A stretch of 64,000 nucleotides of DNA from Bacillota bacterium (lineage in GTDB: Bacteria > Bacillota > SHA-98 > UBA4971), in contig JAAYXB010000075.1 of the NCBI GenBank assembly GCA_012516125.1, positions 5,829-69,828 on the forward strand, written 5' to 3'. The notes beneath the pieces were generated by a model. That model did no database searches and was not told the DNA's origin. It saw only the letters and a program-made list of their open reading frames with translations. Of the stretch, positions 431-55,252 are shown piece after piece (position 1 is the first letter of the stretch; every line of letters begins with the position of its first letter). A program made the position numbers and the translations under genes.

Positions 431-793
431 GGCGCAAACACCTCGCAGAGCCCGTTTGTGTTTGGGCGGACGGAATCCTGCGACGTCGTTCCCTCTGTGC
501 CTGAGTCCTTGAAGAACTTCGACACAGAGCGCCACCGTTCCTCCGACCCCGTTTCACTGCCGGGCCACGCTCGACCGCAACGAGGTACGACCAAACCCGC
601 GAGGCTCGTCGAAAGTTGCCATAAAGCACGAGTCGAAACTTTATGAACGATATCCAAAGGACACACCGAGGACGCGAGTAATTAGTGTAATGAGAGTATC
701 GAAGTGTCGAATCAGGCCACCTCTGGTTGACATTGTCCGGGTCGAGTCGCGTTGCCGTAAGAGGCCAATGCCATGAAAAGGAGGATTCCAAGG

Positions 794-1481: not shown

Positions 1482-2675
1482 GTGGTGAGGAAGGTTGGAA
1501 TCGCCGGGGTAGGCCACACGAAGTTCGGGCGCTCCGAGGTCCCCCTCGTCGACATGCTTGCCCTTGCCGCCCTGGAGGCTCTCGACGACGCGGGGATCAG
1601 GACAGGAAAGGGACACGGCGTGGACCAGGTGTTCGTGGCGTCGATGGGCGCCGGGCTGCTTAACCGCCAGAGCAGCGTCGCGTCGGCCCTCGTGGACACC
1701 CTCAACCTGCAGCCTGCAATGGCCGAGACCGTCGAGAACGGCCCTGCCTCCGGCGCGTCCGCCGTGAAGCTGGGCTACATGGGCATCGCAAGCGGCATGT
1801 GTGACGTGGCTCTGGTGGTCGGCGGCGAGCTCATGCGAGTTGTGACCGGCTGGGAGGCCACCGACTTCGTCGCCACAATGCTTCACCCTGACGCTGAGTA
1901 CGCATATGGCCTGACGCTCCCCGCTTTCGCGGGCATGTTCACCAGGCTCTACATGGACAAGTATGGCGTGACGGAGAAGGACCTCGCCATGGTCGCGGTG
2001 AAAAACCACGAGCACGCCATGCACAACCCGGTGGCCCATATACAGCTCGTTCCAAGCTTCCATGCGATCATCGAAGACGAGGACGCCCCCGTCATCAACC
2101 CGTATGTCGCAGAGCCTCTCCGCGTGTACGACGTGTGCCCCGTCTCCGACGGCGCGGCCGCCGTAGTGCTGTGCGCCATGGACCTTGCAGACCGGTTCCC
2201 GAAGAAGCCCGTCAGGATCGCCGGGATCGGCCAGGCCACCGACACTCACGTGGTGGCGGAGCGCGAGGTTCCTACGGACCTGCTTGCGGTGCGCCTTGCT
2301 GCCCAACGCGCATACGCCATGGCTGGCCTCAAGCCCGAAGATATCGACGTAGCAGAGCTGCACGACGCTTTTACAATACTCGAAATAGCCATATCAGAAG
2401 AGGCCGGCCTCTTCCCGAGAGGCGAGGGTCATCTCGCGGTTCGGCGCGGCGAGACCCGTGTGGGCGGCAGGATCCCCATAAACACCTCGGGTGGGCTCAA
2501 GGCCAAAGGGCATCCGCTGGGAGCAACAGGTGTCTCGCAGATCGTAGAACTCGTCCGCCAGCTCCGCGGGGAAGCAGGCGGCCGGCAGGTCGAGGGTGCA
2601 AGGCACGGCCTCGCCGTCAACTTCGGCGGCTTCGGGAACAACGTGGTCGCCACGATTCTCTCGAAGGAGGAGTGA
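1482..2675 (+). CDS. Thiolase-like protein (SCP-x / DUF35-partner type acetyl-CoA C-acyltransferase-like)
   Basis: GTG start with AAGGTGGGA RBS. N-terminus MVRKVGIAGVGHTKFGR and overall thiolase fold signature. Immediately followed by a DUF35 gene, as in known thiolase/DUF35 pairs. Confidence 0.75.
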   Translation: MVRKVGIAGVGHTKFGRSEVPLVDMLALAALEALDDAGIRTGKGHGVDQVFVASMGAGLLNRQSSVASALVDTLNLQPAMAETVENGPASGASAVKLGYMGIASGMCDVALVVGGELMRVVTGWEATDFVATMLHPDAEYAYGLTLPAFAGMFTRLYMDKYGVTEKDLAMVAVKNHEHAMHNPVAHIQLVPSFHAIIEDEDAPVINPYVAEPLRVYDVCPVSDGAAAVVLCAMDLADRFPKKPVRIAGIGQATDTHVVAEREVPTDLLAVRLAAQRAYAMAGLKPEDIDVAELHDAFTILEIAISEEAGLFPRGEGHLAVRRGETRVGGRIPINTSGGLKAKGHPLGATGVSQIVELVRQLRGEAGGRQVEGARHGLAVNFGGFGNNVVATILSKEE

Positions 2676-2682
2676 CCAGGCC

Positions 2683-3030
2683 ATGGAGCCCAGGATGTAC
2701 GCATACAGGTGCACGGCGTGCGGGAAGCTGTTTCACCCCGCGCGGGCGGTCTGCCGGGAATGCGGTGGTCGCGAGTTCGAGGCCGTCCCCCTCGAGGGCG
2801 AGGGCACGCTCCTCACTTACACCAGAGTGTACGCCCTGCCCGAGGGCTACATGAAGCCGTGGCTTGGGTTCGGCATCGTAGAGTTCCCGAACGGCGTCCG
2901 CGTCTCCGGCCAGCTGAACGCGGAGGACCTCGCTGTTGGGATGAAGGTCAGGGCAACGGTGGGCGTAGTCAAAGAGGGCGTTGGCAGAGACTACTACGGT
3001 TTCATCTTCGAGAAGGCGGCCCAAGTGTAA
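2683..3030 (+). CDS. DUF35 family Zn-ribbon + OB-fold protein (thiolase partner)
   Basis: Internal ATG at 2683 preceded by GAAGGAGGAG. CxxC...CxxC zinc ribbon (YRCTACGKLFHPARAVCRECGG) followed by an OB-fold region. Confidence 0.75.
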   Translation: MEPRMYAYRCTACGKLFHPARAVCRECGGREFEAVPLEGEGTLLTYTRVYALPEGYMKPWLGFGIVEFPNGVRVSGQLNAEDLAVGMKVRATVGVVKEGVGRDYYGFIFEKAAQV

Positions 3031-3091
3031 AGAAGGTACCCGCCACCTCGGTGAGGGTTCATTGGTTTGCCCCAGTTCCACAGCGTCTGGT

Positions 3092-3133
3092 GGGTTGCCA
3101 GTGTTGGACTCTCTCTGAGTCACCGGCAACGCG
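3092..3133 (-). repeat. Hairpin repeat copy A (inverted orientation), upstream of atpE
   Basis: Minus-strand reading GTTGCCGGTGACTCAGAGAGAGTCCAACACTGGCAACCC, with a GACTC-AGAGA-GAGTC inner hairpin. Confidence 0.6.
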
Positions 3134-3199
3134 TCCCAAAGTTGGGAGGATTCTCGTACCATCACTCAGAGGGACGGTGCCTGGAGGAGAATGTCTTGA

Positions 3200-3766
<567 letters not shown>

Positions 3767-3795
3767 CTCTCTCCGGTCGACCTTGGGGGGTTCTC

Positions 3796-4311
3796 ATGCG
3801 GCTCGACTACACGTACATCTTCCAGATACTGAACTTTATCGTCCTGTTCCTCCTCCTTCGCCGTTACCTCTTCGGTCCTGTGAAGGCGTACCTGGAGCGG
3901 CGGGAGCAGTATATCCGCGAGCGGATTTCGGCAGCGGAGAACGACAGAGAGCACGCGGCAAGGCTCAAGGAAGAGCTCGAATCCGAGCTTTCTCGGGCCC
4001 GAGCGAAGGCGCGCGAAATCACGGAGGAAGCCAGGCGTGCGTCCGACCAGGTCCGGGCCGATGCCCGCAAGCTGGCCGCCGAGGAAGCCTCGCGCATCGT
4101 GGCCCGCGCCCGTGAAGAGCTTGCCCGCGAGAAGGAGCGGGCTTTCCAGGAAATCCGCAAGCAGGTGGTGGACCTCTCGGTCACCGTCGCATCGCAAGCG
4201 ATCCGGGACGCCCTCGACCCAGAGACGCTGCGTCAGGTCGCGTCCATGGCCGCGCGCGACATCGTCGAGGCGAAACTCGGAGGCAAGGTCTATGGAGGCA
4301 GGGTCTCATGA
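3796..4311 (+). CDS. atpF: F-type ATP synthase subunit b
   Basis: N-terminal TM helix then a long charged coiled coil (AEE/ARK/RE-rich). GGGGGG RBS upstream. Confidence 0.85.
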   Translation: MRLDYTYIFQILNFIVLFLLLRRYLFGPVKAYLERREQYIRERISAAENDREHAARLKEELESELSRARAKAREITEEARRASDQVRADARKLAAEEASRIVARAREELAREKERAFQEIRKQVVDLSVTVASQAIRDALDPETLRQVASMAARDIVEAKLGGKVYGGRVS

Positions 4312-4949
4312 CCGCTCTCGATCCTGGCACGCTCGCGAGGGCCCTGCTCTCTATAGCGAGGGAACGCCTTGATCCCCAGACTGTCGCAGACGAGCTGGCA
4401 CAGGTCACGAGAATCCTGGCGTCAGTGCCGCTTCTCAAGCGAACTCTAGCCGACGCCGGTATTCCTGCCGAGGAGAGGCGCTCCGTTGTGTCGGATGCTC
4501 TGGGCAATTTCCTCTCACCCGTCACCCTTGGCCTTCTTGACCTGCTCATAGACGAAAACCAGGTACACACCGTCGGTGCGGTGGCCGACGTGTACCGGAG
4601 GCTCCTCGACGAGGACAGGGGCGTGGTGCGCGCCCGCGTGACGAGCGCGGTCGAACTTTCGCAGGTCGACGTCGAAGCGCTTCGGGCGGGCCTCGCCGAG
4701 AAGCTCGGCGGCCACGTGGTCATCGAGCAGCAGGTGGATCCCGGGATCCTGGGTGGCCTCATAGTGCAGGTGGGAGATACCGTGTTCGACGGGAGCATCG
4801 CCGGCCGCCTCCGCAGGCTGCGTGAGGAGCTCGAGACCCCTCCCCCCGCAAATGGTGAACCATCGCCAGCACCCGGAACCGGGACAGCCCCCGCAACCGG
4901 AACGCCGCCGGCGCCGACGGGGCCATCTGCGGCACCACCGGGAGAGTGA
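4308..4949 (+). CDS. atpH: F-type ATP synthase subunit delta (OSCP)
   Basis: ATGA overlap with the atpF stop; delta/OSCP-like sequence. Short Pro/Ala-rich C-terminal tail. Confidence 0.8.
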
Positions 4950-6541
4950 CGTGCTTGGAACTTTCGCCTGAGGCTGTGGCATCAGCGATACGGGCGCGCC
5001 TCGCCGAGATACGTCCCGGGGTCGACGTGTACACCCAGGGGACAGTGATCGAGGTAGGCGACGGGATCGCACGTCTTTCCGGGCTCCGCGGCGCCATGAT
5101 GGGCGAGCTCGTGGACTTTCCGAACGGGGTGTTGGGGATAACCCTCAACCTTGAGGAAGACACGGTCGGGGTTGCCCTCCTGGGTTCCGACGTGGACGTG
5201 AAAGAGGGCGACACGGTGCGCGGCACCGGCCGGGTCATCGACGTGCCCGTCGGGACCGCTGTGGTGGGCAGAGTGGTGAACGCCCTCGGAATGCCTATCG
5301 ACGGAAAGGGCCCGATTAACGCCCCGACTCGCCGACCCATAGAGCACCCGGCGCCCGGCATCGCCATGCGCACGCCCGTGTCAGAGCCTCTCCAGACAGG
5401 GATCCTGGCCATTGATTCCATGATCCCCATCGGGCGCGGTCAGAGGGAGCTCATCATAGGCGACAGGCAGACCGGGAAGACGGCCATCGCCGTCGACACC
5501 ATCCTGAACCAGCGGGGCAAGGACGTCATCTGCATATACGTGGCGATCGGGCAGAAACGCTCCACCATCGCAAAACTGGTCAAGCTCTTCGAGGAGGAGG
5601 GGGCGATGGACTACACGACCGTAGTGGCGGCGTCCGCGAGCGAGCTTGCGCCGCTGCAGTACATCGCACCGTACGCCGGCTGCGCCATGGCCGAAGAGTT
5701 CATGTACACCGGTCGCCACGCGCTCATTGTATACGACGACCTCTCTAAACACGCCATAGCGTACAGGGCCACGTCCCTTCTTCTCAGGCGACCGCCGGGG
5801 CGGGAAGCCTTCCCCGGTGACATCTTCTATCTCCATTCGCGACTTCTCGAGCGCTCAGCGAAGCTGGCGCCCGAGCTTGGCGGCGGCTCCATGACAGCCC
5901 TCCCAATAGTCGAGACGCTCGCGGGCGACGTTGCGGCCTACATACCGACCAACGTCATCTCCATAACCGACGGGCAGATATACCTCGAAAGCGAGCTTTT
6001 CTTCTCAGGGGTGAGGCCCGCCGTCAACGTGGGGCTCTCCGTGTCGCGCGTCGGAGGCGAAGCCCAGATACCCGCAATGAAGAAGGTCGCCGGAAGGTTG
6101 CGCCTCGACCTCGCTCAGTACCGGGAGCTTGCCGAGTTCGCACAGTTCGGCACGGAGCTTGACCCCGAGACCAGAGCCAGGCTGGAGAAGGGAAAGCGCA
6201 TCGTGGAGGTGCTGAAGCAGCCGCAGTACCAGCCATTGCCCGTGGAGGACCAGGTGATGCTCATATTCGCCGTGGTCCGCCGCCACCTCGATGCCGTCCC
6301 GGTGGAGGCCATCGCGTCTTTCAAAACCGAATTCATCGACCACATGCACCGGGCGCACCCGGACATAGCCCAGGCTATCGCCTCAGGGAAGGACCTCGAT
6401 GACGACCTCGAGGCGCGTCTTACGTCGGCAATAAAGGAGTTCAAGGAAGTATTCACGCCGAAAGGCGTGGAGGGGCCCGTCGAAACCTCCCCCAGGAAAG
6501 CTCAGGGCGGCATAGAAAGCCAGGTCATCGAGGGAGCGTGA
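4946..6541 (+). CDS. atpA: F-type ATP synthase subunit alpha
   Basis: GTGA overlap with the atpH stop; Walker A GDRQTGKT and alpha-subunit signature throughout. Confidence 0.95.
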
Positions 6542-6550
6542 CCAGGCCGC

Positions 6551-7510
6551 ATGGAGGAGCTTCGCGACCTTCGCCGCAGGATACGCAGTATCCGGGACAC
6601 ACAGCAGGTCACCCGCGCCATGTCCCTCGTGGCTTCCACGCGGCTGCGCCGGATCGAGAGGTTTGTGGAACCAGCTCGCACTTATGCCGAGACCCTCCGG
6701 CGCGTCGTGCTCGACATCGCCGCGAGAACCCCGCCATGGGCTCATCCGCTCCTCAAGCCGAGGGAAGCGGTGACCCGGGCATATCTCGTCATAACCTCCG
6801 ATAGGGGCCTTGCGGGCGGCTACAATGCGGAGATCCTGCGGCGAGCAACTGACCTCCTCGGAGCAGCGGACCTCATACCAGGCCACGTGGCGGTGGTGGT
6901 GGCCGGCAGGAAGGGCCGGGACTCCTTCCGGAGGCGGGGCCCGCGACCGGTCAGGGAGTACGTCCACCTCCCCGACACTCCTGACGAAGCGCTCGCCCAG
7001 CACGTTGCCGAAGGCCTGCTCGCGGATTATTCCGAAGGCCGGATAGACTCCGTGCACATGGTGTTCGCGAGGTTCGTGTCCCGGGGTTCGTACCAGCCCG
7101 ACGTGGTGCAGTTGCTGCCTGTGGAGGGGACGCAACACGCAGACTACCAGGACGAGACCCGGATCCCCGGCACCGACAACGGAGGCGATCGGAATGAGGT
7201 GATCGGCCGGGACAACGGCGGCCGTGACAGGGAAAGGCCGAATGGGCCGAACCTGCCTATCACGTATGAGCCTTCGCCCGAGTCCGTCTTCGACAGGCTC
7301 TTCCCCCACTATCTGGTGTCCGCGGTGTACGCGGCGCTCGTGGAGGCCAAGGCCAGCGAGCTTGCGGCGAGGACCATCGCTATGGATTCGGCCACCGACA
7401 ACGCGGGGGAGCTGATAGAGAGGCTCACGCTCACCTATAACCGGGCGAGGCAGGCCGAGATCACGCAGGAGATCTCGGAGATCGCCACCGGCGCAGAGAG
7501 CCTCCGCTGA
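6551..7510 (+). CDS. atpG: F-type ATP synthase subunit gamma, with a ~35-aa D/G/R/N-rich insertion
   Basis: MEELRDLRRRIRSIRDTQQVTRAMSLVASTRLRR...; C-terminal ARQAEITQEISEIATGAESL. Insertion GTDNGGDRNEVIGRDNGGRDRERPNGPN at about 7150-7260. Confidence 0.9.
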   Translation: MEELRDLRRRIRSIRDTQQVTRAMSLVASTRLRRIERFVEPARTYAETLRRVVLDIAARTPPWAHPLLKPREAVTRAYLVITSDRGLAGGYNAEILRRATDLLGAADLIPGHVAVVVAGRKGRDSFRRRGPRPVREYVHLPDTPDEALAQHVAEGLLADYSEGRIDSVHMVFARFVSRGSYQPDVVQLLPVEGTQHADYQDETRIPGTDNGGDRNEVIGRDNGGRDRERPNGPNLPITYEPSPESVFDRLFPHYLVSAVYAALVEAKASELAARTIAMDSATDNAGELIERLTLTYNRARQAEITQEISEIATGAESLR

Positions 7511-7654
7511 GCGCCGCGTTTGAGGCCGCACCGGTTTCCCCATGCAGTCCGTGCGCGTCGCATGCGTCTTGCGCGGCGCGGCGTCAAGGCTTGGCGCGAA
7601 TCTCTGGAGAGACGGGGGCAGTACCCCAAGCAAGGGTTCACTGGTCTCTCCTCG

Positions 7655-7757
7655 TTTTCGAGGGGGCGCAGGGTTGCCGACGACTCAAAGAGACTGTGCA
7701 ACCCCGGCAACCCGCCAGGTGTTGGCAAACTGTCATGAACTGACGAGCCCTAACGCA
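7655..7757 (+). repeat. Hairpin repeat copy B in the atpG-atpD spacer
   Basis: GAGGGGGCGCAGGGTTGCCGACGACTCAAAGAGACTGTGCAACCCCGGCAACCCGCC...CTAACGCA. Confidence 0.6.
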
Positions 7758-7793
7758 GCATGCAGTTGAGAACTCGCGAGACGGCGAGTGTAG

Positions 7794-9311
<1,518 letters not shown>

Positions 9312-9369
9312 AAGCACGGCAACGGGCGCGATTACAAACCCGGTCCTAAGCCAGCGATTACCTACGGCC

Positions 9370-9490
9370 ATATACGTAGGTGGTGCAGAAATGCTCCCAA
9401 CTGTTGGGAGGGGTTGCCGGTGACTCAAGGAGAAAGTGCAACACCGGCAACCCGGCAACTACTGACAATGGGGCAAGGACTAACGCACCC
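9370..9490 (+). repeat. Hairpin repeat copy C in the atpD-atpC spacer (most complete copy)
   Basis: ACGTAGGTGGTGCAGAAATGCTCCCAACTGTTGGGAGGGGTTGCCGGTGACTCAAGGAGAAAGTGCAACACCGGCAACCCGGCAACTACTGACAATGGGGCAAGGACTAACGCA. The 11-bp stem GGTTGCCGGTG/CACCGGCAACC is perfect. Confidence 0.65.
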
Positions 9491-9517
9491 TCACCTAGGT
9501 GCCCTCACGGAGGTGAG

Positions 9518-9784
9518 ATGGTGAGCCACTTCACCTTGCGCGTTCTCACGCGGCAGAAGACAGTCCTGGAAGCCCGGGCGACTTCGGTCTTCATCCCGGG
9601 CTTCGAAGGGGACTTCCAGGTCCTCGGCAATCATGCACCGGTCGTGTCGGCACTCCGCCCCGGGCGAATCGTTGCAACGTGCAACGGGGAGCAGAAAGAC
9701 GTCGAGGTAACCGGGGGCTTCGTCGTCGTCATGCCCGACCGCGTCGATGTGCTCGTAGACCTCGCCGACCTCACGCCTCGATGA
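9518..9784 (+). CDS. atpC: F-type ATP synthase subunit epsilon, beta-sandwich domain only (88 aa); no C-terminal helical hairpin
   Basis: GGAGGTGA RBS then ATG; MVSHFTLRVLTRQKTVLEARATSVFIPGFEGDFQVLGNHAPVVSALRPGRIVATCNGEQKDVEVTGGFVVVMPDRVDVLVDLADLTPR*. The stop lies inside the 3' end of the convergent GGDEF gene. Confidence 0.8.
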   Translation: MVSHFTLRVLTRQKTVLEARATSVFIPGFEGDFQVLGNHAPVVSALRPGRIVATCNGEQKDVEVTGGFVVVMPDRVDVLVDLADLTPR

Positions 9785-17345: not shown

Positions 17346-17400
17346 TGTCCTGTTCCCTGTGACTTTGAGACATGCCGTCCCCAACTCCTGAGAGGAAAAT

Positions 17401-17440
17401 GGGTTGCCGGAAGGCAACCCGTGACTCGTCTTGAAAACCC
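17401..17440 (-). terminator. Intrinsic-terminator-like hairpin downstream of hbs; also sits downstream of the putative ffs on the other strand
   Basis: On the minus strand: GGGUUGCC-UUCC-GGCAACCC followed by AUUUUCCUCUC, 18 nt after the hbs stop. Sequence-related to the hairpin repeat family. Confidence 0.5.
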
Positions 17441-17457
17441 CGATTCTATGATATGGA

Positions 17458-17736
17458 CTATCTCGCGGCAACCTTGTCCTTGAGAGCCTTGCCGGCCTTG
17501 AACACCGGCACCCTGGATGCGGCGATCTTGATGGACGCGCCGGTCCTCGGGTTCCTCCCCGTGCGCGCAGCGCGCTCCCTCACTTCGAAAGTGCCGAATC
17601 CGACAAGCTGCACCTTGTCTCCAGAAGCAAGAGCGCTTTCCACAGCCTCCAGCGTCGCGCCGATGACCTTCTCGACATCTTTGCGCCTGGCGCCTGTCTG
17701 CTCGGCAACTTTCGCCACGAGCTCCGCCTTATTCAA
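17458..17736 (-). CDS. hup: DNA-binding protein HU
   Basis: TTG start after a GGAAGGAGGGA RBS; (M)[85 protein letters not shown]. Confidence 0.9.
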
Positions 17737-17887
17737 CTCCGTCCCTCCTTCCGCCCTGCAAATGCTCAGGTCGTGCGGTTTTGCCTGACCTCTGCCATTT
17801 GCTATTCGATTCGATTCGGCATTCTCCTTCTCACTGTGGCGAAAAATGTTGATATGACGCCATATGCGTCGATGGAAAATCATGCCC

Positions 17888-18757
17888 TCAATTCCCTGGA
17901 AACGATCTTTCGACGACCTGACCCGGCTTGCCCAGCACACCGATGTGGACCCCATTGTAGGTCACATCTATTCCGCTGGCGTTGCCCACCTTGATCCGGA
18001 TGGACTCCCTCGCGCGCCAGGTGGCTTGCTCCCCCGCCAGCATCGAGCGCTCGAAGACCACTTTCCCGTCGGCCACCACCCTCACCCAGCAGCGCTCGGT
18101 TATGGACACAGAGATTTCGTGACCTTCTGCGACCGCGGAACCTTCCTGCGTTGAAGGCTCCGCAGGTGACCGGGATGATGTCGTCGGCGCAGGCTGTGAA
18201 GATGTTTTCCTTGCCGCCTGCAGGCCTCCCTCCGGCGCCACCTCTTCCGGACGCGCATCCGGGAGGGCCTGGTCCTCTGACAAAACCAGAGCATCACCTG
18301 TCGCAACGTCTGTAGCACGTTCATCATGGCGAACGTGCTGCGCACCGGACACCTCAGCCAGCCCTGCAGGCACATGCCCATGGCGCCATACCGTGACGCC
18401 TACGACAACCGCCACCACAGCAACCGTTCCGACGGCGATCAACAAGCGTCGCGGAATTCTGGCTTTTTTCGACACATCTCGCCTTTTGTCGGGAGATGCC
18501 TCCCGGGCCTTCTCCGCCTCGATTCTGGCGCGCTCCGCTTTGTACCGCGCCACGACCTCATCCCCGCGAAGGCCCACCGCCTCTGCGTAGTTGCGAAGGA
18601 ATCCCTTGACGTACACCTCCCCGGGGAGAGCCTCGAAGTCCCCTTGTTCTATCGCCTCCAGGTACCGACTGCGTATCTTCGTTGCCTCCTGCACGTCGGA
18701 AATAGTAAGACCCCTGGCCTCCCGCGCTTTCCTCAGAAGCTCGCCGAGCTCTCGCAC
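17888..18757 (-). CDS. rodZ: RodZ-like cytoskeleton protein (XRE HTH, TM segment, C-terminal DUF4115-like domain)
   Basis: [63 protein letters not shown], then a TM helix and a conserved C-terminal beta domain. Confidence 0.75.
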
Positions 18758-22970: not shown

Positions 22971-23810
22971 TCAGGCCCTCAGGAGCGCCCAGGCTATAAC
23001 CGCTGCGCCGACGATCCACGTGTAGATCGCGAACACCATGAACCTGCGCCGTCTCAAGGCTGAGAACACGAGGTGGATCGCCACGTACCCCGAGACGATG
23101 CTGGCGACTGCACCCCCGAGAAAGGGCGCCGCGAAGCCCTTCGCAAGGCCTGTTCTCACAAGGTCCGGAAGCTCAAGCGCGCTTGCCCCGAGGATCACAG
23201 GTATGGATAGCAGAAAAGAGAACCTCGCCGCGTCGTCACGCCGGAGGCCGAACAGGAGACCCGTGCCGATCGTCGCGCCGGAGCGGGAAAACCCCGGGAC
23301 CACCGCCAGCCCCTGTGCCACGCCGATGCAGAACGCACCAAAAGGTCCCAGGCAGCCCAGGGGGATACGCCCTGTGCTCACCCTGTCGGCAAGCCACAAC
23401 ACAAGGCCGGTCGCGACGAGGAAGATCCCCACAGCGAGCCTCGACGTGAACAGCCGCTGCACGACCGGTTCGAGCGCAAGCCCCATGAGCGCAGTCGGGA
23501 CGCTCGCGACGATAATGAGGAAAACCGCCTTTCGCCAGTCGTCGCGTGAGATGGCCTTGCCGAGGCCTGTCCCCCTGGCAACATCCGCTGCAATGCCCAC
23601 CGCCGCCGAGACAAGACGCGCCACATCGTGCCTGAAAACCAGGACAACCGCAACGAGGGTTCCAAGGTGCACCAGGACGTCGAACGATAGCAGCGCTTCC
23701 TGGGTCTTGAGGATCTCTCGCGCGATGACGAGGTGGCCCGAGCTTGACACGGGCAGGAATTCGGTGAGCCCCTGCACCATCCCCAGGACCACGGCTTTTA
23801 CGACGTCCAT
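22971..23810 (-). CDS. uppP: Undecaprenyl-diphosphate phosphatase
   Basis: Internal ATG (MDVVKAVVLGMVQGLTEFLPVSSSGHL...); BacA/UppP signature. Confidence 0.85.
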   Translation of the reverse strand: MDVVKAVVLGMVQGLTEFLPVSSSGHLVIAREILKTQEALLSFDVLVHLGTLVAVVLVFRHDVARLVSAAVGIAADVARGTGLGKAISRDDWRKAVFLIIVASVPTALMGLALEPVVQRLFTSRLAVGIFLVATGLVLWLADRVSTGRIPLGCLGPFGAFCIGVAQGLAVVPGFSRSGATIGTGLLFGLRRDDAARFSFLLSIPVILGASALELPDLVRTGLAKGFAAPFLGGAVASIVSGYVAIHLVFSALRRRRFMVFAIYTWIVGAAVIAWALLRA

Positions 23811-24742
23811 GTGCGCCCCCCTCTCACGATGTCCACGAACCTGCGGGACCACGGCAGCACAACAACGATGGACAGCAGGTTGAAGAGCGTGTGAGCGTTG
23901 GCTATGCCGTGCCCCGGGTCTTGCGGTGAAATAGCCTCCACGAGCCGAACGAACGCATTGAACACCGGGAGAACACAGGCCACCCCTGCAACGTTGAAGG
24001 CAAGGTGCAAAACGGCCGCTTTCCTCGCAGCGCGCGACGCCCCGACACTCGCGATGAGCGTTGTCACACACGTGCCGATGTTGCTGCCGAGAGCGACGGC
24101 CACCGCAGACCCGAGGTCCATGATCCCCTGTCGCGCAAGGCTGATGAGCACGACCGTGGCCACGCTGGAACTCTGGATGACTCCGGTGAAGGCCGCGCCC
24201 GCCATAACCCCCAGCGTCGGCACCTGCCCCAGCACCACCAGGGACTCAACCAGCCACGGCGCGCCTGCAAGCCAGGCCATGGCAGAGGAGGTCACGCCCA
24301 CGCCCCACAGGATGCATCCGAGGCCGGCCATCGCCACCCCTATGTCGCGATGAAGGCGCCGCCTCGCCGCCAGGTACAGCGCGAGCCCGGCACAGACGAC
24401 CGGGGCGCCCAGCGACTCCGCTCGAAATGAGACTATCTGCGCCGTCACGCAGGTCCCGAGGTTTGCCCCCATTATCACGCCGAAAGCCTGATAGAGGTCG
24501 AGAACCCCGGCGTCGACGAGCCCAACCACCATTACCGTGACCGCGCCCGAGCTCTGCAGGACCGCGGTCACCACCGTGCCCGTCACGGTCGCAGCCAGGG
24601 GTGTGCGGGTGAGCCCTCTCAGAGCATTCTCCGCGCGCCTGCCTGCAGCGCTGCGGAGCCCCGCGCGCAGCAACCGAATGCCCGTAAGAAAAAGGCCTAT
24701 CCCCGCAAGCAGCCGACAGAGCGAGGCGACCACGGCGCACAT
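23798..24742 (-). CDS. Na/Pi cotransporter family protein (short form, no PhoU domain)
   Basis: Two QSSGA/QSSSVAT repeats, polytopic membrane protein; overlaps the uppP start by 13 nt. Confidence 0.7.
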   Translation of the reverse strand: MCAVVASLCRLLAGIGLFLTGIRLLRAGLRSAAGRRAENALRGLTRTPLAATVTGTVVTAVLQSSGAVTVMVVGLVDAGVLDLYQAFGVIMGANLGTCVTAQIVSFRAESLGAPVVCAGLALYLAARRRLHRDIGVAMAGLGCILWGVGVTSSAMAWLAGAPWLVESLVVLGQVPTLGVMAGAAFTGVIQSSSVATVVLISLARQGIMDLGSAVAVALGSNIGTCVTTLIASVGASRAARKAAVLHLAFNVAGVACVLPVFNAFVRLVEAISPQDPGHGIANAHTLFNLLSIVVVLPWSRRFVDIVRGGRTWTS

Positions 24743-24954
24743 CTCCTCCACGCGCGAAGATCCGCCGCCACAGCGCATCGGTCTCAATATATGCCCTGTC
24801 AGCCCCAGTTATTATAGCACAGGGCGAATGCGGACGAAAAGCCCCGGCAAGACTCAGGGAGTTGCACTGAGTGCGCCGCCCCGGAGGCGAGTTGCCTGGA
24901 GCCGAATTGCGTGATGCTACGGAAGAGCAGCGGAGATCCCTGACTTGCTGGTTA

Positions 24955-25026
24955 CACGTAGTGCTTGAGGGGGCAAGAATGCTCCCGACTTCTGAGAGGG
25001 GTTGCCGGTGACTCAAAGAGGTTTAG
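24955..25026 (+). repeat. Hairpin repeat copy D (5' half only) between ylzJ and the Na/Pi transporter gene
   Basis: ACGTAGTGCTTGAGGGGGCAAGAATGCTCCCGACTTCTGAGAGGGGTTGCCGGTGACTCAAAGAG; the 3' arm is missing or diverged. Confidence 0.55.
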
Positions 25027-25038
25027 GCGCGGCCGCGA

Positions 25039-25266
25039 TCAACGAGCAACAAGAGACGGGGTGAGCCGAACGCGGCTGCCGGGCTGCAGGGAAGGATCGA
25101 GAAAGTGCTGAGGGTCAGTGCTGATGATCCGTACGATCACGGCCTCGTTCGCGGACACCTGCTCGACGACCACGTTGATACCATTGATTTCCACATTAGT
25201 GAATGTCCTTTCTCTATCGATGCCCTCCAGGACCAGCTCGAGCGGAAGAACGGTGTACAGGATCAT
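25039..25266 (-). CDS. ylzJ: YlzJ-like small protein
   Basis: 75 aa beginning MILYT..., overlapping the tepA stop by 4 nt. This position directly downstream of tepA is where ylzJ sits in Bacillus. Confidence 0.5.
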
Positions 25267-26105
25267 TGCAGCCGCCCAGCCTCCCTGTCGGCGACCTCGG
25301 CGCGGCCGGCTCGCCTCTCCTCAATCATCCTGTTGAGCGCGGCAAGCGCGTCCGAGAGGCCCCCGACCGCGTCCATGAGGCCGAGGTTGACGGCATCGCT
25401 CCCCACGAGGACTGTGCCGACGTCTCGCACAAGCTCTCCTGTGCGGAACATGAGCTCCCGGAACTTCTCCGGGCTGATTCTGGTGTGCTCGGCCACGAAT
25501 TTGATGACCCGGTCCTGCATTTTCTCCAGGTACTCGTAGGTTTGGGGAACGCCTATGACAAGCCCGGAGAGCCGCAGCGGGTGCACCGTCACTGTGGCCG
25601 TCGAGGCGATGAGGCGGTACTTGCAGCTCACGGCGACCGGCAGGGCAATCGAGTGACCCCCGCCGAGCACGAGGGACACCGAGGGCTTCGACATGCTCTC
25701 GATCATCTCAGCGATGGCAAGCCCTGCCTCCACGTCGCCGCCCACGGTGTTCAGAACGACGAGGAGGCCCTCGATAGCGGGATTCTGCTCGACGGCCACA
25801 AGCTGCGGGATAACGTGCTCGTACTTGGTACTCTTGTTCTGGGGAGGCAGAACGATGTGCCCCTCGATCTGGCCGATTATCGTCATCACGTGTATGTTGC
25901 TCTGCGGCGCCGGAGGAGTGCGCATCTCACCGAGTTGTTTCAGCGATGCTGGAGCCGACTCAGGAGTGTCCGGCACCTCGCCCGGCGTCCCGGGGGACGG
26001 CGTCTTCTCTGGAACCGGGCTGATCTCGCCGCCGAGCTTTGCCGGCGCAGGGCTGGAAATTGAAAGCGTGCAGCCGGTGCCGCACCGGTCGCTCATCTCA
26101 TTCAA
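25263..26105 (-). CDS. tepA: TepA/YmfB-like ClpP-fold (SDH-family) serine protease
   Basis: ClpP-like core ([18 protein letters not shown]...), a Pro-rich N-terminal extension, AGGAGG RBS. Confidence 0.65.
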
Positions 26106-54536: not shown

Positions 54537-54538
54537 CC

Positions 54539-55252
54539 CTAATCCCGGCGGCTGCCCCGGAGGATGAGGAGCCGCAGAAGTTGCGTCACCGCGACCGCGG
54601 TGGCCGCAAGGTAGGTCATTCCGGCGGCGCTCAGCACCTGGCTGGCGTGGCGGAGCTCATCGGTCGTCATGTACCCGCCACGCTCCAGGAGCGCCAGCGC
54701 CCTCCTGCTCGCGTCGTACTCAACCGGAAGCGTCACGATGGAGAACGCAACGGCGCCGACGAAGAGCCAGATCCCCAGGGTCATCAGCCATTCGAGGCCG
54801 GTCCCCGCGAAGATGAAGCCTATGAGGAACAGCGGGAACGCGAGGTTCGAGCCAAACGTCGCCACCGGCACGAGGCTTGTACGGATGGCGAGCGGGACAT
54901 AGCCGTTCGCGTGCTGTATGGCGTGACCGGCTTCGTGCGCTGCGACGCCGAGCGCAGCGAGTGAGCTGCCCCTGTACACCTCGGGCGACAGGCGAAGGAC
55001 CTTTGCCCGCGGGTCATAATGGTCCTGCAGCCTCCCTGGAATCTGTTCGATTCGCACAGAGCTGAGCCCGCTGCCATCGAGGATGTGCCGGGCTACCTCG
55101 GCTCCGCTCACACCGCTACGTGCCCTTACCCTCGAGTAGGTGTTGAACACGCTCTGCACCCTGCTCTGCGCCCACAGGGCGAACAGCATCGCAGGGAATA
55201 TCAGAATGTAAGTTGGGTCCCAGAAAAACATCATCCAGCCCTCCTTGGACAT
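54539..55252 (-). CDS. Putative neutral zinc metallopeptidase (Zn_peptidase_2 family membrane protein)
   Basis: HEAGHAIQH zinc motif, membrane segments. Confidence 0.7.
   Translation of the reverse strand: MSKEGWMMFFWDPTYILIFPAMLFALWAQSRVQSVFNTYSRVRARSGVSGAEVARHILDGSGLSSVRIEQIPGRLQDHYDPRAKVLRLSPEVYRGSSLAALGVAAHEAGHAIQHANGYVPLAIRTSLVPVATFGSNLAFPLFLIGFIFAGTGLEWLMTLGIWLFVGAVAFSIVTLPVEYDASRRALALLERGGYMTTDELRHASQVLSAAGMTYLAATAVAVTQLLRLLILRGSRRD

Follow-up and report, generated by a model that had tools for sequence, protein, structure and literature searches.

RUP of Streptococcus pneumoniae and the Correia (NEMIS) elements of Neisseria are MITEs whose movement is ascribed to IS630/Tc1-mariner-type transposases. 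The REP, BIME and REPIN sequences of Proteobacteria are mobilised by RAYT transposases, and the ERIC (IRU) elements of enterobacteria are imperfect palindromes of ~126 bp that occupy transcribed intergenic regions. We describe a repeat family found in a 64,000-nucleotide stretch of DNA from an uncultured Bacillota bacterium (contig JAAYXB010000075.1, positions 5,829 to 69,828; hereafter the window). Its copies are very likely non-autonomous transposable elements of a single MITE family, dispersed among the intergenic regions of one lineage, possibly by an IS630-type mechanism.

The full unit is ~126 bp long and is composed, in order, of a terminal repeat, a small arm hairpin, a core hairpin and a second arm. 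The ends are 14-bp terminal inverted repeats that are perfect in the consensus (CTAAGTGAGGGTGC / GCACCCTCACTTAG) and were unmarked in the initial annotation, which covered only the core. The core hairpin, GGGTTGCCGG...CCGGCAACCC, is central in the unit; its consensus is GC-rich, with a 12-bp stem (GGGTTGCCGGTG/CACCGGCAACCC) and a 19-nt loop. The consensus sequences are CTAAGTGAGGGTGCAGAAATGCTCCCGACTTTTGGGAG for arm A, GGGTTGCCGGTGACTCAAAGAGAGAGTGCAACACCGGCAACCC for the core hairpin and GGCAACTACTGGAAGAGGGGCGAGAACTAACGCACCCTCACTTAG for arm B. The modules that had been recognised as shared are real: the 5' module corresponds to arm A including the small hairpin, and the 3' tail ending in CTAACGCA is arm B leading into the right terminal inverted repeat. 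Apart from the 14-bp repeats, the two arms lack mutual complementarity. The unit lacks coding capacity and is too short for a gene.

The ends are sharp in 52 repeat-bounded elements. Conservation begins at C-T-A-A-G and stops at C-T-T-A-G, the flanks are random, and each terminal-repeat position is conserved in 45-52 of the 52 copies. The modal length is 126 bp (21/52), with a second mode at 198-200 bp. This ~200-bp variant carries in its loop a 95-nt insert with a predicted three-way-junction fold. The arms are mosaic, and one core is combined with at least three arm sets (classes 1, 2 and 3). Among eight copies that were not picked by the search seed, the core stems are ~90-94% conserved versus 81-84% for the terminal repeats, which hints at a constraint on the core beyond a simple MITE model.

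The window was searched with the family HMM (nhmmer) and with a covariance model (CM), the latter with its filters off. Of the five related copies initially claimed, four are significant. These are a full short-loop copy at 9374-9499 on the plus strand (copy C; CM 122.9 bits, E 8e-29; nhmmer E 1.8e-34), a full inverted copy at 3047-3169 on the minus strand (CM 91.6 bits, E 7e-21; nhmmer E 3e-22), a full but decayed copy at 7626-7758 on the plus strand (copy B; CM 70.1 bits, E 2e-15; nhmmer E 7e-21) and a 5' half at 24966-25021 on the plus strand (nhmmer E 3.5e-15). The nhmmer alignments themselves cover 9381-9497, 3051-3169, 7628-7754 and 24966-25020, and the CM alignment of copy C covers 9376-9498. 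An unbiased repeat finder independently pairs 7671-7754 with 9411-9494 (74%) and 9382-9432 with 24970-25020 (84% match), and identifies 3110-3139 as an inverted match to both direct-repeat pairs. The stem 10-mer GGGTTGCCGG is by itself non-diagnostic, with 13 matches in the window at no more than one mismatch versus 9.3 expected; the significance of the family derives from the full-length unit.

The fifth claimed copy, a rearranged member at 17380-17440, did not hold up. Neither the HMM nor the CM reports this region at E<=10, and its best local alignment to the copy at 24955 scores 25, a score that three of 1143 other 111-nt segments of this DNA reach. The region does contain a hairpin on the minus strand (17401-17420, GGGTTGCC-TTCC-GGCAACCC followed by ATTTTCCTCT) that fits a terminator pattern and is located 38 nt past the HU gene (17458-17955, minus strand). 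It is HU terminator-like and could be a family relic or a chance match.

Copy C lies between atpD, which ends at 9311, and atpC, which starts at 9521 and whose identity was confirmed by Pfam. It begins with a degenerate left inverted repeat (9375-9386, CGTAGGTGGTGC), followed by the arm-A hairpin (9394-9410, CTCCCAAC-T-GTTGGGAG) and the core hairpin (9411-9453), whose stems GGGTTGCCGG (9411-9420) and CCGGCAACCC (9444-9453) enclose a loop at 9421-9443. Arm B (9454-9484) leads into the right inverted repeat (9485-9498, GCACCCTCACCTAG). Across ~120 nt, copy C shares 84-92% identity with many copies in a related genome, Bacillota MAG-64 (JACIXY01).

Copy B is located in the 388-nt atpG-atpD spacer, and its actual start is ~7626 rather than the 7655 given previously. 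HMM comparison indicates that it is a mosaic whose left arm best matches class 3 and whose right arm is B2-type; its core stems are GGGTTGCCGA (7671-7680) and CCGGCAACCC (7704-7713). The inverted copy occupies a 463-nt gap between a zf-ChsH2/OB gene (end 3030) and atpE (start 3494). The previously assigned interval of 3092-3133 captured its core hairpin (3092-3132, minus strand) and missed the remainder of the full copy. It is orthologous to MAG-64 L019:7673-7796, with collinear flanks.

The half copy runs through arm A and the left stem and breaks off early in the loop, where unrelated sequence takes over. It is situated between genes for a Na/Pi cotransporter (23798-24787) and a Clp-protease-like protein (25263-26105), both on the minus strand, and is therefore antisense to transcription. 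Loop-truncated halves of this kind also occur in related genomes. An apparent surplus of 5' halves was rejected as a biological signal and attributed to ascertainment, since the search seed sits in the 5' half. All four copies in the window are old and have decayed in part.

The family extends far beyond the window. The exact core 18-mer GGGTTGCCGGTGACTCAA was scanned against a collection with one genome per species and matched at least 80 loci, far more than the five copies from which the search was proposed; among the matches listed, 73 fall in seven MAG records and seven are unrelated chance matches. MAG-64 accounts for at least 54 loci, Yes71-24 for at least 10, MAG107 for at least five and four other MAGs for at least one each. 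Six of the seven MAG records listed are labelled Bacillota or Clostridia and one Betaproteobacteria. A 99.7-kb contig binned as 'Betaproteobacteria MAG135' (L018, JBLNCC010000076.1) carries a near-perfect full copy (129 bits); this contig is probably mis-binned, as it comes from the same project as Bacillota MAG107 and Clostridia MAG111.

HMM searches of ~600 kb of family loci yielded 160 distinct matches, 50 of them full length. Nearly all copies are intergenic, and only one or two of ~100 fall inside crude gene calls. The element apparently occupies dozens or hundreds of intergenic sites across a single lineage of high-GC Bacillota, uncultured and recovered from biogas reactors. A literature search for its sequence strings returned unrelated primer matches only, and the sequence family appears to be undescribed.

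Comparison of closely related genomes indicates that the units come and go as wholes. Three loci of MAG-64 overlap the window, with ~94% identity. At 54538-54542 the window has an empty site (ATCC-CTAA-TCCCGG) that is filled in MAG-64 by a 126-bp element (L035:2489-2614, ATC-CTAAG...CTTAG-TCCCGG), and the ends of this indel coincide exactly with the inverted repeats. A second empty site in the window (547-560) is likewise occupied by 126 bp in MAG-64 (L019:5059-5184), in a spacer too diverged for the target to be read. Further filled and empty sites between other MAGs (L045 versus L063 and L009 versus L001) bring the total to four pairs.

Once inserted, copies seem to be free to diverge. The inverted copy (3047-3169) and its MAG-64 ortholog are 83% identical, close to the 84.5% of neighbouring intergenic DNA and below the 91% of third codon positions, a pattern of change at a neutral rate and without purifying selection. 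Another orthologous copy has lost internal sequence in MAG-64, and one half copy arose by deletion between direct repeats of 6-7 nt (L029 versus L056).

The junctions suggest how insertion may occur. The initial annotation called for a check of target-site duplications, and none is present outside the conserved ends: direct repeats of 3-9 bp flank the 52 copies no more frequently than in shuffled controls, so a duplication of this type was rejected. When the boundary is moved 3 nt inward, so that the outer CTA/TAG counts as flank, 42 of the 52 copies have TA at both junctions. Most copies start with C (47/52) and end with G (46/52), with G...C and A...T pairs among the exceptions; this pattern is expected of a palindromic NTAN target, chiefly CTAG, with the TA duplicated. 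The two readable empty sites, CTAA and CTGG, are located where CTAG is predicted, and neither is exactly CTAG; at the other two, sequence divergence obscures the target.

Insertion of IS630/ISY100 at TA, and duplication of TA in the IS630 family, are documented (PMC2170065); a passage of the same paper, citing Tenzen and Ohtsubo 1991, attributes to IS630 a preference for TA within CTAG. Judging from the junction sequences, the elements described here may similarly insert into CTAG with duplication of the TA. CTAG is scarcer in the window than any other tetranucleotide, with 22 occurrences observed versus 215 expected from composition and 57 from a Markov model. This scarcity would help to explain both the intergenic location of the copies and the repeated use of one site. 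The next most depleted tetranucleotides in the window are TTAA, CTAA and TTAG.

In the mechanism that we propose, a transposase supplied in trans would bind the terminal repeats, and the element would be cut and pasted into TA, preferably within CTAG, with duplication of the TA as for IS630/Tc1-mariner elements. Inserted copies would then decay neutrally. Half copies may result from deletions at microhomologies, and mosaic arms from recombination or template switching at the palindromic core that the subfamilies share; inversion across short inverted repeats may flip the core or the whole element.

Most of the features that define a MITE are present; the target duplication is putative, and no partner transposase was found among the family loci. 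No pair of terminal repeats brackets a transposase in the ~600 kb of family loci, and the suggested association with a transposase was thus not borne out there. One 1.5-kb terminal-repeat pair was considered as an autonomous element and rejected, as it encloses a C39-like peptidase and not a transposase. All-against-all BLAST of the loci returned orthologous pairs only, with no multi-copy sequence >400 bp, and the ORFs downstream of half copies are host genes (among them those for AspRS, UvrA, an ABC ATPase and an FtsW-like protein). A TnpB-like fragment beside one half copy was judged incidental as a partner because it sits at a rearrangement junction that is missing from the orthologous locus. 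MAG assemblies usually lose IS copies, and the missing transposase is therefore weak evidence against a MITE.

The orientation of the copies relative to transcription carries some signal. In the window, one copy is inverted within a plus-strand operon, and inconsistent orientation had been put forward as an argument for a DNA-level repeat. That argument is weaker than claimed, since the main subfamily is sense in 20 of 25 gaps between co-directional genes of a high-copy relative (p 0.004, on crude gene calls). Copies of classes 2 and 3, scored by core direction, have no orientation bias (9:11). The 20:5 bias counts against a purely neutral cut-and-paste process, unless selection at the transcript level or strand-biased insertion is at work. 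It is probably due to selection on transcripts that affects which insertions persist; the antisense strand is pyrimidine-rich and may base-pair with ribosome-binding sites or weakly terminate transcription. A replication-linked insertion bias could also produce it.

The latter possibility bears on a REP/REPIN-type explanation, under which the core hairpin is the functional unit and is moved as single-stranded DNA by a Y1/HUH transposase, with the arms as passengers as in BIMEs. Bacillota genes are mostly co-oriented with replication, and the bias could reflect insertion into one replication strand, as in single-strand transposition; against this, the class-2 and class-3 copies are unbiased. 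The core is also common to subfamilies with unrelated arms, occurs in either orientation relative to them and has stems slightly better conserved than the ends. However, the sharp ends of the unit are at the 14-bp repeats, ~40 nt outside the core, presence/absence indels take the whole 126-bp unit and not the core, and isolated armless cores are not seen as a class. Moreover, the consensus ends lack a conserved GTAG-type 5' tetranucleotide, no Y1 transposase is present among the few ORFs examined, and the sole IS605-family signal is a TnpB pseudogene fragment. We consider REP-like movement of the core very unlikely, and the MITE interpretation accommodates the ends and the indels.

Several rearrangements involve the core or its inverted repeats. 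Five or six short-loop copies and one long-loop copy carry the core in flipped orientation with respect to their arms. In the window's species, a 200-bp long-loop element at L082:5043-5240, ~1.3 kb upstream of the window start, occupies the same orthologous site as L019:3029-3227 of MAG-64 in the opposite orientation; the two are ~88% identical after reverse-complementing and their flanks are identical. This pair could have arisen by inversion in place between the 14-bp terminal repeats, or from separate insertions into a single CTAG hot spot. Between Yes71-24 (L021:~3629) and MAG-64 (L049:~7345), collinearity breaks off precisely in a hairpin loop, that of a 5' half copy; beyond the junction, L021 has an OrfB_IS605 (TnpB) pseudogene fragment.

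Such changes could mark a protein-binding or recombination site adopted by the host, with a nucleoid protein, recombinase or invertase acting on the core and the flips representing active site-specific inversions. The flipped cores, the element found in opposite orientations at one orthologous site in two species and the synteny break placed exactly in a hairpin loop are all in line with this idea. Yet the flipped copies all belong to one arm subtype, as would be expected if one or a few ancestral inversions had been amplified and spread, rather than of continued switching. Orientation is uniform among independent assemblies of the window's species (L082 and L083), and no recombinase is associated with the elements. 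A host-adopted site of this kind is, in our view, highly improbable. Short inverted repeats promote rare RecA-independent inversions, and the mosaics, flips, in-place inversion and synteny break fit recombination or template switching at such repeats, with no new mechanism required of the MITE family.

Other structural variants were seen. A long-loop element at L037:3795-4065 has an extra insertion of ~68 nt in arm B, surrounded by 4-bp direct repeats (CTAC), that may be a different small insertion element. Among the variants at L026:327-405, L051:1841-1987 and L042:6566-6705, one joins the arms without a core and two carry tandem duplications (21 nt and 14 nt) inside the core.

The strongly folding consensus raises the question of a functional structured RNA, either an mRNA stabiliser or processing site that tunes operons such as atp, or a small RNA. 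The 126-nt consensus folds at -66.5 kcal/mol (z -9.5 versus shuffles) and the 200-nt consensus at -122.9 kcal/mol (z -10.4). In addition, the three copies in the atp spacers are fixed in every sampled contig of the window's species, and the predominance of sense copies in the main subfamily would suit a transcript-level role. A strong consensus fold nevertheless follows from the inverted repeats and palindromes of the DNA element, and the folds of the window copies (z -1.2 to -3.9) are little better than shuffles; copy C reaches -3.3, and copy B, at -1.5, is not better than its shuffles.

Covariation, which the initial annotation proposed to check along with the fold, is weak. Stem pairs are maintained in 89% of cases, and double changes are modest, with few that are compensatory. 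With the consensus G.T pair excluded, stem mismatches of the G:T and A:C types are equally frequent (54 each), which indicates that no strand-specific structure is preserved. Rfam returned no match at gathering thresholds across the whole window, and at E<=10 the best scores for copy C and the long variant were 12-15 bits versus thresholds of 37-99, in agreement with the earlier statement that the repeats belong to no known RNA family.

The behaviour of the copies also speaks against an RNA. The orthologous copy changes at the neutral rate. Genomes with 94% identity differ by gains, losses, truncations and inversions of copies, and two of the four copies in the window run antisense to transcription. 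Terminator and promoter patterns are absent from the three atp-operon copies (within 3047-3169, 7626-7758 and 9374-9499), which are probably co-transcribed passengers that form hairpins without terminating transcription. A riboswitch or leader RNA was rejected because the copies are numerous and mobile, decay neutrally and show no strand-specific pairing, and we regard a functional RNA in general as most improbable. The original view of a dispersed repeat acting at the DNA level rather than a cis-regulatory RNA is supported by the copy number, the mobility, the absence of an Rfam match and the neutral decay, and neither result that had been named as refuting it was obtained.

A phage or plasmid origin was rejected, as viral contigs contain one weak match to the core 18-mer and 42 matches to the inverted-repeat 14-mer that are all chance by HMM, and PLSDB plasmids contain no match to the element.

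We also considered, as an unlikely extension, that the core is an invertible or exchangeable module of a dedicated hairpin-binding protein with an active strand- or site-specific mechanism, or that sense copies have been recruited as operon RNA hairpins. If there were such a core-binding protein, the flips, the in-place inversion, the synteny break in the loop and the 4:1 bias would be outcomes of a mechanism undescribed for MITEs. If sense copies had been recruited, they would set relative gene expression within operons such as atp.

The operon that houses three of the window copies (1482-9784) encodes atpE-F-H-A-G-D-C, with neither atpB (a subunit) nor atpI upstream; a thiolase gene (1482-2675) and the zf-ChsH2/OB-fold gene (2683-3030) lie ahead of atpE. 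This layout is identical in eight independent metagenome contigs of the window's species, and without atpB in the operon the a subunit must be encoded elsewhere. A search for the atp operon of MAG-64 by identical AtpE protein returned only contigs of the window's species. The plus-strand GC skew is ~+0.01 over the plus-strand genes (1-10 kb) and -0.05 to -0.12 over the minus-strand genes, which suggests that the minus strand is leading and that the atp operon is on the lagging strand.

Recognition of the MITE family explains the unusually long spacers of the atp operon (209, 388 and 463 nt). The family will recur in all genomes of this biogas-reactor lineage, and flagging it avoids miscalling its hairpins as riboswitches, small RNAs or terminators. 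With so many copies it probably causes contig breaks (the contigs L086 and L089 both begin inside a copy), and it is a ready source of strain-level markers. The family is also a compact natural case of short inverted repeats driving inversion, deletion and module shuffling within a single repeat family, and its orientation bias points to transcript-level selection among insertions. General knowledge of mobile elements is unchanged by it, as this is an ordinary kind of genomic parasite, albeit of a seemingly undescribed family.

The family shares several traits with REP and BIME sequences, which are likewise GC-rich intergenic palindromes found within operons and arranged as mosaic modules in alternating orientation. 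REP units, however, are 20-40 nt long and consist of a palindrome with a conserved 5' tetranucleotide, and REPINs are long near-perfect hairpins of two inverted REPs. The unit described here is 126 bp long with 14-bp terminal repeats and non-complementary arms, and its indels involve the whole unit. Owing to these differences in size and ends it is neither a REP nor a REPIN, so that only the second half of the original designation, REP/MITE-like, applies.

With ERIC (IRU) elements the family has in common longer variants with internal insertions at fixed points, as well as shorter deletion variants, whereas sequence and host are unrelated. ERIC copies are few, and their high conservation across genera suggests constraint; the copies here are numerous and decay neutrally.

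Relative to RUP and Correia (NEMIS), no sequence similarity to described elements was found in Rfam, plasmid or literature string searches. The family differs from them further in its host, an uncultured high-GC Bacillota, in that a cognate transposase was not found in the family loci, and in a palindromic core that is shared by at least three arm sets in both orientations. In other respects it resembles them: the elements are ~100-200 bp long and non-coding, and they have terminal inverted repeats with TA at both junctions. They occur in dozens to hundreds of intergenic copies that are often co-transcribed with their neighbours, and they have stable predicted hairpins, size variants created by internal indels and insertion polymorphism among close relatives. 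In behaviour, the closest counterparts of this family are thus MITEs of IS630-type mobilisation, such as RUP and Correia.
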